Below the pieces are notes generated by a model. That model was not told the origin of the DNA, ran no database searches, and was given only the letters and a program-made list of their open reading frames with translations. From Desulfurococcaceae archaeon (lineage in GTDB: Archaea; Thermoproteota; Thermoprotei_A; Sulfolobales; Desulfurococcaceae), in assembly GCA_038888155.1 (NCBI GenBank), contig JAWAJB010000001.1:224001-288000 (forward strand): a stretch of DNA of 64,000 bases, given 5' to 3'. The stretch's first letter is position 1. Each line of letters starts with the position of its first letter. The translations under genes were made by a program, and so were the position numbers. Of the stretch, positions 8,201 to 26,692 are shown in pieces.

Positions 8201-8306
8201 GCCGCCGTGGCTCAGCCTGGTAGAGCGCCGGCCTTGTAAGCCAGGTTAGATTGCTAGGCCTGTCCGGGTGAGCCGGTGGTCGCGGGTTCAAATCCCGCCG
8301 GCGGCT
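8201..8306 (+). tRNA. tRNA-Thr(TGT) with 32-nt intron at 37/38 (8239-8270)
   Basis: Cloverleaf GCCGCCG/CGGCGGC; anticodon TGT at 8235-8237; GGTTCAAATCC T-arm; BHB-like junction; upstream TTTAAG TATA box. Confidence 0.93.
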
Positions 8307-17685: not shown

Positions 17686-18942
17686 TTAAGGGACTAGCCT
17701 AGTCCTATCTCGAACGAACATTATAGCCTCTCGTATATTCTCTAGGCCGAGGAGCTTCATTAATAACCTCTCAACGCCGAGCCCAAAGCCGCCGTGAGGA
17801 GGCATGCCGTACTTGAAAGCCTCGAGGTAGAAGTCGAAGTCTGAGGGATTTAATCCCTTTTCTCGGAGGGCATCAATGAGTTTCTCGTACCTGTGCTCTC
17901 TCTGCCCTCCACTAGCGATTTCTAGGCCACGGAAATCTAAGTCAAACTTCCTAGTGTGCACCCCATCGTCTTCCCTCATGTAGTAAAAGCCTGTTGCCTG
18001 CCGCGGAAAGCCAACAATGAAGTACAAGTAGTGCTTTTTCTCGCTCAGTATTTCGCCCAGTTTTCTCTCGGCGTAGTCGCTTAAGTCTTCCCCTTCGCTA
18101 ACCTCAACTCCCTCTGCCTTCAAGATGTCAACTGCCTCTGTGAACTTAAGCCTCTTAAATGGGGGTACAATCTTCGGAAGTTCTACGCCGAGGATTTCAA
18201 GTTCTTCCTTGCGGCGGGCCTCAATGTAGCTCGCAATGTACGATATGAGGTTTTCGAGCGTGTTCATTACATCCTCTACGCCAGCAATAAATCCCTGCTC
18301 GGCATCAATTCCCCACAATTCATTGAGGTGCCTTACTGTATTGAACTTCTCTGCCCTAAAGTAAGGAGTGATCTCGTAAATTCGCTCAAAGCTGCTAATT
18401 AGTATTTGCTTGTAAAGCTGGGGGCTCTGGCTCAAGTAGGCCTCCCTCTCGAAGTATTGGACCTTAAATAGAGTAGCCCCTCCCTCAGCGCCTGCAGCCA
18501 CTAGCTTTGGAGTTTGAACCTCTATAAAGTTGTTTTTGTCAAAAAATTCGCGAGCGGCCTTTAGTAGATCTGCTTTGACTTTGAAAATAGCTTTTTCAAC
18601 TGGATTCCTCGCTAGGAGCCACCTGTACTTAATTCTCGTGTCCATTAGCGAGGGGACTTTCCCCGATACATCTACAGGCAGAGGCTCCACGGGCTGCCCG
18701 TAAATCTCTATTTTACTAACTCTATACTCTAGCCCGCGCTTGCTCTTCTGCTCTTGAGCCGGAGAGCCCTCAAAGCATATAGCGGTGCCTACTACTAGTT
18801 TGCTAGCCACTTGGAATAGCTCTACATCCCTGTCTTCTTTTAGTACGAGCACTAAAGGCTTTGCGTTGTTTCCGCAGACTTCAACAATTAAGATTTTCCC
18901 AACTCTCGCCGTTCGAATAACCCAGCCGCACTCCCTTGCCAA
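17686..18942 (-). CDS. aspS: Aspartate-tRNA ligase
   Basis: AEGGA, LSQSPQLYKQ, FRAE, GGQREH, GMPPHGGFGLGVERL; TTG start after AGGTGG RBS. Confidence 0.95.
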   Translation of the reverse strand: MARECGWVIRTARVGKILIVEVCGNNAKPLVLVLKEDRDVELFQVASKLVVGTAICFEGSPAQEQKSKRGLEYRVSKIEIYGQPVEPLPVDVSGKVPSLMDTRIKYRWLLARNPVEKAIFKVKADLLKAAREFFDKNNFIEVQTPKLVAAGAEGGATLFKVQYFEREAYLSQSPQLYKQILISSFERIYEITPYFRAEKFNTVRHLNELWGIDAEQGFIAGVEDVMNTLENLISYIASYIEARRKEELEILGVELPKIVPPFKRLKFTEAVDILKAEGVEVSEGEDLSDYAERKLGEILSEKKHYLYFIVGFPRQATGFYYMREDDGVHTRKFDLDFRGLEIASGGQREHRYEKLIDALREKGLNPSDFDFYLEAFKYGMPPHGGFGLGVERLLMKLLGLENIREAIMFVRDRTRLVP

Positions 18943-19055
18943 GAATTTCCACCTGAATACTCTACGTAAGGCACTTAATTTAAAAATAAATGAGTACGGG
19001 GGTTTAATACTCAAACGAGATCTTAGGAGTGGCGGGGCCCGCTATGAAGCGAGAG

Positions 19056-19098
19056 TAGCGGGGGGTGGATTTGAACCACCGACCTCGGGGTTATGAGC
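19056..19098 (-). tRNA. 3' half (positions 31-73) of split initiator tRNA-Met(CAT)
   Basis: GCTCATAACCCCGAGGTCGGTGGTTCAAATCCACCCCCCGCTA, preceded by a 22-nt GC-rich leader (19099-19120) and its own TATA box. Confidence 0.9.
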
Positions 19099-19144
19099 TT
19101 CGCGGGGCCGGGCTGCCGCTCTATTATACTAGAGTGGTTTTCCG

Positions 19145-19152
19145 CTTATAAA
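19145..19152 (-). promoter_or_regulatory. TATA box of the 3'-half tRNA gene
   Basis: TTTATAAG 25 nt upstream of the leader start, preceded by purine-rich BRE-like sequence. Confidence 0.7.
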
Positions 19153-19272
19153 TTTTATCGCTGGGGCAAGGAAATATGCCTGTTGCGTTAGTTGATGTAA
19201 ATGCTCCTGTGTGATTGCTGCAGCTGACAACATTAAATAATTGGAGAAAAGTGAAGCGCCTGTAGAAATGTG

Positions 19273-19278
19273 AAAAAA
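19273..19278 (-). terminator. Oligo-T terminator after the 5'-half tRNA trailer
   Basis: TTTTTT directly after GGCTGCCGC. Confidence 0.6.
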
Positions 19279-19296
19279 GCGGCAGCCACGGCGCCT

Positions 19297-19327
19297 CCCG
19301 CGGGCTACCAGGCTGCCCTACCCCGCT
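19297..19327 (-). tRNA. 5' half (positions 1-30) of split initiator tRNA-Met(CAT)
   Basis: AGCGGGGTAGGGCAGCCTGGTAGCCCGCGGG (A1, D-arm), then a trailer complementary to the 3'-half leader; TTTTAAGG TATA at 19363-19370. Confidence 0.9.
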
Positions 19328-19417
19328 GTTAAACCCCGCCAATTCTACCTTTCTGTTTTATCCCTTAAAAACTTGAAGAGCTGGGCGAGCGAAGCCGATA
19401 TAGCTGCCAATTTACTC

Positions 19418-20353
19418 CTAGCTTAAGTAGCCGCGTGCCCTAAAGAACTCTACAAGCCGCTTGGCTACATCCTCGCTAGCTCGCACCTGAGCTTCGTGAG
19501 TGCTTGCCCCAACGTGGGATGTTAGAACTACGTTATCTAGCTTGGCGAGTGCGTGGCCTGCAGGCAGCGGTTCTTCTTCGTAGACATCTAAGCCGGCTCC
19601 AGCAATCCAGCCCTCCTTTAGGGCCTTTACGAGGGCGCTTTCATCGATTACAGCGCCTCTTGCCGTATTTATTAGGATTGCTGTGCGCTTCATTAGCTTC
19701 AGCCTCTCTTCGTTAATCATGTGCTTTGTCTCTGGAGTTAGAGGTACATGTACGCTTACTATATCTGCGCTTCTCAATATATCCTCTACTGACATGTACT
19801 TCGCCCCTACTTCTTCCTCTAATCTCTTGTTCCTTGAAATATCGTAGTATATGATCTGCATGTTGAAACCGTGCTTAGCTATTTTAGCTACTAAAGAGCC
19901 GATCCTACCCGCGCCCAGTATTCCAAGTACCTTTCCGCTAAGCTCGCTGCCTACGGCTTGCTTCTTAGGCCACTCCCCCCTCCTAATTTCCCTATCGCAG
20001 TAAGCTATTTTCCTAGCTACAGCTATCATCAAGCCCACTGCTAGCTCAGCTACGCTTGTTGTTGTTGCCTCGGGCACAGTTATTACCTCTATGTTGCGAG
20101 ACTTCGCAGCATCTACATCAATGTTGTCCACGCCAACGCCAGCTCTAGCTATAACCTTGAGGCTATCTGCGGCCTCAATTACAGACCTTGTTACTAGGGG
20201 CCTGCTCCTTACTATTATGCCGTCGAAGCCCTTAATCAGCTTAGCTAGCTCCTCTACGGAGGGCTCCTCAACAAAGGCGGTTTCCACCCCGCTGGCCCTG
20301 AGGATCTCGACTCCCCCCTCGTGTATCTTGCTTGCAACTAGCACTCTAACCAA
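19418..20353 (-). CDS. D-2-hydroxyacid dehydrogenase (phosphoglycerate DH-like)
   Basis: RAGVGVDNID, GAGRIG, INTARG, LDVYEEEP, HVGAST. Confidence 0.9.
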   Translation of the reverse strand: MVRVLVASKIHEGGVEILRASGVETAFVEEPSVEELAKLIKGFDGIIVRSRPLVTRSVIEAADSLKVIARAGVGVDNIDVDAAKSRNIEVITVPEATTTSVAELAVGLMIAVARKIAYCDREIRRGEWPKKQAVGSELSGKVLGILGAGRIGSLVAKIAKHGFNMQIIYYDISRNKRLEEEVGAKYMSVEDILRSADIVSVHVPLTPETKHMINEERLKLMKRTAILINTARGAVIDESALVKALKEGWIAGAGLDVYEEEPLPAGHALAKLDNVVLTSHVGASTHEAQVRASEDVAKRLVEFFRARGYLS

Positions 20354-26593: not shown

Positions 26594-26692
26594 GGCCCGG
26601 GTAGCTCAGCCTGGTAGAGCGCCGGGCTGTGGACTCCCGAGATGATGGGGACAGATACCCGGAGATCCCGGGTTCAAATCCCGGCCCGGGCC
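26594..26692 (+). tRNA. tRNA-His(GTG) with encoded G-1 and 24-nt intron at 37/38 (26633-26656)
   Basis: Cloverleaf; anticodon GTG at 26629-26631; BHB helix CTGT/ACAG with 3-nt bulges; C73. Confidence 0.95.

Follow-up and report, generated by a model that had tools for sequence, protein, structure and literature searches.

The window analysed here is a 64,000-nt stretch of DNA from a hot-spring archaeon of the Desulfurococcaceae, positions 224001-288000 of contig C1 of its assembly (G000). On the minus strand of the window lie the two exons of an initiator tRNA-Met (tRNA-iMet). The 5' exon (19297-19327, 31 nt, reading AGCGGGG...CGCGGG) carries tRNA positions 1-30 and the 3' exon (19056-19098, 43 nt) carries positions 31-73 including A73, and an interruption of 198 nt stands between them. 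Joined in this order, the exons give 74 nt that fold into a perfect initiator-type cloverleaf with a minimum free energy of -36.1 kcal/mol, and ARAGORN identifies the joined molecule as tRNA-Met(CAT). The anticodon CAT, the A1:U72 pair and the pairs G29-G31:C39-C41 can be read directly from the sequence; an A1:U72 pair, three G:C pairs at 29-31:39-41 and the anticodon CAU are the hallmarks of archaeal initiators. A sequence-only reading made earlier had placed both exons here, on the minus strand and about 200 nt apart, and had named the tRNA as the initiator, and on both counts the cloverleaf and the initiator pairs bear it out. The 5' exon is the same as the 5' part of intact tRNA-iMet genes in many relatives. 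The core of the 3' exon, scanned in one genome per species, is identical in at least 121 gene copies at a minimum of 119 loci of other Thermoproteota; among the matches listed (121 copies), site 30/31 is uninterrupted in 116 and interrupted in five.

The interruption begins with a trailer of 19 nt (19278-19296, minus strand), composed of the bulge base A, an inner helix strand and the 10-nt arm GGCTGCCGCT, and ends with a leader of 22 nt (19099-19120, minus strand), composed of the 10-nt arm AGCGGCAGCC, an inner helix strand, CGCG and the bulge AA. The trailer sequence AGGCGCCGTGGCTGCCGCT at the start of the interruption pairs with the leader sequence AGCGGCAGCCCGGCCCCGCGAA at its end over 10 + 4 + 2 = 16 bp, in a G+C-rich helix with two single-base bulges. 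The duplex of trailer and leader alone is predicted to be stable at 80 °C (-14.3 kcal/mol), and the cofold of the two halves reaches -70.6 kcal/mol at 37 °C. At the 30/31 junction, CGCG of positions 25-28 can pair with the CGCG of the leader between the bulges GG|A and AA|G; cleavage in a bulge-helix-bulge motif follows the second base of the bulge. Both elements had been described in the sequence-only reading, the helix as ten perfect base pairs plus an extension and the junction as a CGCG/CGCG helix between these two bulges. The first is confirmed, at 16 bp in total; the second can be drawn with standard pairs only but is not the minimum-energy fold. Because the bulge-helix-bulge conformer (-62.5 kcal/mol at 37 °C) lies 8 kcal/mol above that fold, takes C25 out of the D stem and does not form the outer 'h' helix, the junction is, as modelled, a relaxed form of the bulge-helix-bulge motif. 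In a second scan with the interrupted junction as pattern, ten loci were retrieved, and the CGCGAA|G intron end is present in all of them.

A further helix encloses the whole gene. The 5' leader arm TGGCGGGGTTT (19331-19341, minus strand) pairs with the arm at 19040-19030 of the 3' trailer (19030-19051, minus strand), in which the hairpin CGCT-TCAT-AGCG is followed by this arm, GGGCCCCGCCA. Across loci L001-L164, tRNA-iMet genes are bracketed by a leader/trailer helix of this kind, with GGCGGGG upstream and a small hairpin and then CCCCGCC downstream. Its compensating variants, seen among 131 gene copies, are GGTGGGG/CCCCACC, TGGGGCCGT/ACGGCCCCA, TGGGAGGC/GCCTCCCA and GGCAAGGG/CCCTTGCC, and its commonest length is 8-10 bp as compared to 6-7 bp in shuffled controls.

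Promoter-like boxes were scored with a 12-nt matrix derived from the sequences preceding 42 tRNA genes of contigs C1-C4. Within 19040-19420 of the minus strand, the best two matches start at 19154 (score 8.8) and at 19373 (score 8.2), so that the promoter box which the sequence-only reading had assigned to each half is recovered as a matrix prediction in both cases. The box upstream of the 5' half (AGTTTTTAAGGG, 19362-19373) starts 46 nt before A1; for the internal box (AATTTATAAGCG, 19143-19154), the distance from its start is 34 nt to the leader arm and 56 nt to the 3' exon. Scores of at least 8 are reached by 25 of the 42 training promoters and at a background rate of 0.00083 per position (C1-C4). 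In ordinary tRNA genes of this genome the motif is mostly found 35-43 nt before the mature 5' end, and the 34 nt between the internal box and the leader arm would thus place the transcription start at most a few bases away from the first paired base of the leader. Upstream of the internal box, a run of six T (19273-19278, minus strand), which had likewise been noted after the 5' half, begins with the last base of the 5' arm and is the candidate terminator for the transcript of the 5' half; archaeal RNA polymerase terminates at runs of at least five T. T runs of at least six have a frequency of 0.00032 per position. Of 69 ARAGORN calls, only the tRNA-iMet locus and two doubtful calls with 'introns' of 723 and 2223 nt contain five or more successive T within the gene. 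At separated tRNA-iMet 5' halves elsewhere, at least five T are found nearby in only one case out of six.

Weighing these elements, we lean towards the reading that the tRNA-iMet gene is an adjacent split gene expressed as two transcripts, with cis splicing as a minor route. The rival to be weighed most carefully holds that the locus is one gene with a 198-nt cis-spliced bulge-helix-bulge intron, transcribed as a single unit from 19373 through the T6 run. Both the TATA-like box inside the interruption and the run of T would then be incidental features of an A+T-rich insert, perhaps a decayed mobile insertion; the spacer has 38% G+C vs 44% in the genome, which makes chance motif matches more likely. 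Since the halves are colinear on one strand and 198 nt apart, a read-through transcript could physically be spliced in cis. Such a precursor folds with the same helix and junction, and ARAGORN, when introns are allowed, models the locus in this way, as tRNA-Met with a 198-nt intron. On the other side, a T6 run inside a credible tRNA transcription unit would be unique in this genome, and 198 nt exceeds the 11-129 nt range of archaeal tRNA introns (Chan, Cozen and Lowe 2011; PMC3218864). Given a T6 run and a promoter-like box inside the interruption, a single transcription unit across the locus is doubtful, and we consider the one-gene reading rather unlikely.

The origin of the interruption can be traced to a short intron. 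The congener G004 (locus L113) has a 27-nt intron at 30/31, AGGCGCCGT-TGAAACA-GGCCCCGCGAA, of which the first 9 nt are identical to the start of the trailer in the window and the last 11 nt to the end of the leader. The flanking genes on both sides of tRNA-iMet are kept in seven of the eight congeners compared. Identical intron ends and conserved flanking genes together indicate that the 198 nt result from a local insertion into the intron loop, and the window form is, judging from this alignment of ends, an intron of the 27-nt type with about 171 nt added in place of the loop; the inserted DNA starts and finishes with the 10-bp arms. The interruption shares the 30/31 site, the 5' start and the CGCGAA 3' end with the ordinary non-canonical bulge-helix-bulge introns of five congeners (27-46 nt), which are cis introns and to that extent speak for the one-gene reading. 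From ordinary crenarchaeal tRNA introns it differs by its length of 198 nt, its internal T6 run and its internal promoter-like box.

Between the internal box and the T6 run, homology, ORF, Rfam and C/D-box searches recognised nothing in the spacer (19155-19272, minus strand). Neither blastn nor tblastx found a homologue of it in the genome or in the loci examined. Over 18900-19500, a weak tRNA match to the 3' half (21.7 bits) was all that Rfam returned at E up to 1; no C/D boxes were found in the spacer, and the 72-aa frame at 19342-19127 had no Pfam match. A tblastn search with the ORFs that relatives carry in their tRNA-iMet inserts found no homing-endonuclease remnant in the window spacer, which stands against its being the decayed insert of the one-gene reading. 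The only matches fell in G027, whose 252-nt interruption keeps an antisense, LAGLIDADG-like remnant of the C-terminus of the insert ORF (E 6e-4 to 8e-3 in a tiny database). Long ORF-less interruptions can therefore be decay products, as the one-gene reading supposes.

Forty related genomes (G000-G039, with G040 left out) were read at site 30/31. The site is intact in 23 of them and holds an intron of 24-46 nt in 11. Two have an ORF-less interruption (198 nt in G000, 252 nt in G027), and two have a same-strand insert of 1.45-1.58 kb (G020 and G035). In one (G026, same contig as L121) the two halves occupy opposite strands at a distance of about 2 kb, with no intact copy, and G008 was unreadable at an assembly gap. 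Within the genus of the window (17 genomes), ten genomes are intact, five have short introns and one is unreadable, and the long form occurs only in the window.

The inserts of 1.37-1.58 kb at 30/31 (L147 in G020, L148 in G035, L120 and L123) contain related ORFs antisense to the tRNA, with the motifs LALSDGS and LAG(V/I)IDGDG; their Pfam matches to LAGLIDADG_3 and Hom_end (19.1 and 17 bits) are below the cut-offs. The ORF of G020 is broken into two frames, and the copy of L123 is without the first motif. Other sites of the gene are interrupted as well. At L157 (G018, minus strand from about 627), tRNA-iMet has an insert at 59/60 with a sense ORF that matches LAGLIDADG_3 above the cut-off (26.4 bits). 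The genes at L121/L160 (G026) and L120 are likewise interrupted at 59/60, after TTCAAA of the T loop. The 3'-most tRNA piece of L120 and L121 was not located within the stretch examined, and these genes may consist of three pieces or contain a long endonuclease-bearing intron. In L146 (G023) and L150 (G032), the tRNA-iMet gene is interrupted immediately behind the anticodon loop, by 254 and 175 nt, respectively, that contain no ORF. Trailer and leader form strong helices in both, a TATA-like box stands 56 nt (G023) and 64 nt (G032) upstream of the 3' piece, and G023 has a T5 run as well. In G002, of the same genus as the window, the tRNA-iMet gene (L154, minus strand, ~660-845) is interrupted three times: 30/31 holds 31 nt, a second insert of about 55 nt follows the anticodon loop, and the longest, of 187 nt, sits at 59/60. 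In this longest insert a helix of 13 bp is combined with a T5 run behind the 5' arm, and a TATA-like box precedes the 3' piece by 58 nt; the architecture of the tRNA-iMet gene of the window is found again here at another site.

The position of the internal box could be compared among relatives, by measuring the distance from box to 3' exon in 12 long or separated tRNA-iMet interruptions. It falls within 52-64 nt in ten of the 12 cases, in a comparison that uses a matrix from one genome and a scan range of about 65 nt and includes two weak scores (3.8 and 4.1). Where the halves are on opposite strands, the motif starts 52 nt (L042), 56 nt (L121) and 55 nt (L122) before the 3' exon; where 1.55-1.58 kb lie between the halves, the distance is 58 nt (L120) and 63 nt (G035). 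Four other ORF-less cases have 56-64 nt (L006 at 30/31, G023 and G032 at 38/39, G002 at 59/60). Outside this range are G027 with 67 nt and a weak score, and L123 with 95 nt. The promoter geometry of the window is hence common to separated tRNA-iMet halves, and this shared spacing is supportive of the split arrangement. It also bears against a single transcript, as the best promoter match of the region sits where a leader-producing promoter should, just as in the separated halves. The sequence-only reading had called the gene split and trans-spliced. Its first part is favoured by the promoter spacing in relatives and by the T6 run and has the colinear halves against it; trans-splicing itself, like both transcription starts and termination at T6, we infer.

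Expression of an adjacent split gene could proceed as follows. The promoter at 19373 would give a transcript of about 70 nt that comprises the leader, positions 1-30 and the 19-nt trailer and ends at T6. The promoter at 19154 would give a second transcript from near 19120, with the 22-nt leader, positions 31-73 and the 3' trailer. The two RNAs would pair through the 16-bp trailer/leader helix, the acceptor stem and the outer leader/trailer helix, the last of which would add intermolecular pairing between the two tRNA halves. The crenarchaeal splicing endonuclease would then cut both 3-nt bulges, GG|A and AA|G, and RtcB would ligate G30 to G31. Read-through past T6 would lead to the same junction by cis splicing, probably as a minor route, as reported for Aeropyrum pernix tRNA-Asp.

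Genes for the enzymes of this pathway are present in the assembly. ORFs of the splicing-endonuclease family (PF01974) are found at C4:102321-102572 (94.3 bits) and C3:116569-116805 (31.2 bits), and the RtcB ligase is encoded at C3:118380-119684 (587 bits). The crenarchaeal splicing endonuclease is a two-subunit enzyme, an expectation that the two EndA-family ORFs match. The weaker homologue, a 192-aa frame, is on the same strand as RtcB and about 1.6 kb upstream of it, and the two may form a small tRNA-splicing gene cluster.

No second tRNA-iMet copy or fragment was found by blastn of the halves and the joined form or by ARAGORN over the 134 contigs, and the three other tRNA genes of the assembly with a CAT anticodon have G1:C72 acceptor ends. 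A search for an intact copy elsewhere had been proposed as a check on the split reading; it returned none, in an assembly that is a draft and probably composite. G000 comprises 134 contigs and 2.42 Mb (16 congeners have 0.9-1.5 Mb), with an estimated completeness of 97.4% and contamination of 6.4%. Several near-duplicate tRNAs occur in it, e.g., at C1:437603 and C29:1458, and the bin probably holds more than one genome. For this composite look, the statement that there is no intact tRNA-iMet copy is valid for the assembled sequence only.

The state of the assembly brings up a further reading, namely that the locus is inactive and disrupted by an insertion, the intact initiator tRNA gene having been missed in the draft. 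The 134 contigs, the completeness of 97.4% and the composite look leave room for such a gene, and conserved tRNA genes are a frequent break point of metagenome assemblies, to which the contig ends at tRNA halves attest. Yet relatives have intact, functional-looking genes with the same sequence in both exons, and the insertion falls precisely inside an intron that was already there, with both splice-junction sequences and a 16-bp closing helix preserved. The locus is moreover at the conserved genomic position of the tRNA-iMet gene of congeners, and not even a fragment of a second copy turned up; an inactive locus is hardly credible. Alternatively, the 198-nt spacer could be an assembly artefact that misjoins two tRNA pieces. 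Public runs were compared as contigs, from the metatranscriptome X4 (54% of sampled words), the one RNA run in which the organism was recognised, and three DNA runs, and no contig of these covers 19107-19297; in these metagenomes tRNA halves are of high multiplicity, with depth in the thousands. However, a misjoin would not yield the matched helix formed by the complementary trailer and leader, which flank the exact 30/31 junction, and both flanking genes are syntenic with congeners. Halves that were not adjacent would make the gene split all the more. We hold a misjoin to be extremely improbable, and an inactive copy and an artefact taken jointly would still be highly improbable.

In default mode, ARAGORN reports only two tRNAs in the window and Rfam at its gathering score reports four, in neither case including the tRNA-iMet locus. 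The expectation that standard annotation would miss the gene thus holds for these two procedures and fails for ARAGORN with introns allowed. Routine tRNA annotation of hot-spring archaeal bins can accordingly list the initiator tRNA as missing.

The closest precedent for the putative split tRNA-iMet is, by analogy, the adjacent split tRNA-Asp of Aeropyrum pernix, where an apparent intron of 121 nt contains a promoter 20-25 nt short of its end and a G/C stem measures 14 bp (PMC3218864). Near halves on the same strand and membership in the order Desulfurococcales are common to both, as are an internal promoter and a bulge-helix-bulge junction, the former predicted in the window and the latter modelled there in a relaxed form; the G/C-rich stem has 14 bp in A. 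pernix and 16 bp in the window. They differ in isotype (Asp vs initiator Met), in the junction (37/38 vs 30/31) and in the spacer (121 vs 198 nt), and unlike A. pernix tRNA-Asp the gene of the window has a congener with a short, ancestral-looking intron. Northern blots of A. pernix tRNA-Asp detected both halves and the mature tRNA, and the full-length precursor was detectable by RT-PCR only (PMC3218864), a read-through product that lends the one-gene reading some support. Two transcripts are thus documented by northern blot and RT-PCR in A. pernix, whereas the tRNA-iMet of the window is known from sequence alone.

[quoted passage not shown] The halves of tRNA-Lys(CUU), however, are 4.5 kb or more apart and are reported to form a canonical hBHBh' motif, whereas those of the window are adjacent and without the outer h helix. 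Initiator tRNAs made from separate or rearranged pieces via the splicing endonuclease pathway are likewise not confined to the proposed case: Nanoarchaeum equitans has a tRNA-iMet split at 37/38 and Thermofilum pendens a permuted tRNA-iMet at 59/60 (PMC3218864). In contrast to both, the junction of the window is at 30/31, and the lineage is another one. The available part of a 2014 review gives, among the split tRNAs known then, no tRNA-iMet in the Desulfurococcales (PMC4033280), and full-text searches of open-access papers brought up none that reports, in its title or abstract, a split tRNA-iMet in this order. New in the window is the isotype of the putative adjacent split, initiator Met, together with a visible short-intron relative.

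It has long been debated whether split tRNA genes are ancient two-piece relics or genes with introns that broke apart recently. In the window, the tRNA that starts every protein appears to have 'just split', with a sister species retaining the short parental intron, and relatives with separated halves or homing-endonuclease genes at the site complete a natural series from intron to split gene. Within one order the stages comprise intact genes, introns of 24-46 nt, inserts of 1.4-1.6 kb with an endonuclease ORF, remnants of 180-270 nt and halves on opposite strands. A tentative generalization, which we regard as speculative and quite unlikely to hold as it stands, is that the tRNA-iMet 30/31 intron of the Desulfurococcales is a hot spot at which invasion by LAGLIDADG-type homing endonucleases turns a cis intron into a split gene. 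If so, the usually antisense endonuclease gene would make a separate promoter and stop signal necessary for each tRNA half, and the window would represent an ORF-less end stage in which an essential single-copy initiator tRNA is made by trans-splicing. Split tRNA genes would then have a concrete 'late' mechanism of origin.

Further observations concern the sequence libraries and other tRNA genes of G000. A 107-nt contig of the X4 RNA library, matching 19056-19106 and 19297 onwards, joins the tRNA-iMet exons through a 31-nt intron at 30/31. It was considered as a transcript of the window itself and rejected on account of 23 differing letters, which assign it to another organism; it is either an unspliced precursor or DNA carry-over in the RNA library. 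A search of metagenome contigs with the trailer pattern found no strain variants, and the four loci retrieved were dismissed as chance matches in unrelated G+C-rich coding DNA. With introns allowed, ARAGORN also calls a tRNA-Ala at C4:66266, a tRNA-Leu at C114:947 and a tRNA-Arg at C54:2942, with 'introns' of 723, 2223 and 1581 nt; at least the tRNA-Ala call is absent among the listed Rfam tRNA matches, and these giant-intron calls may be false or may represent further disrupted genes. Two intron-containing tRNA genes that ARAGORN misses in default mode are located in the window at 8201-8306 and 26595-26692 of the plus strand (Rfam 61.4 and 60 bits).
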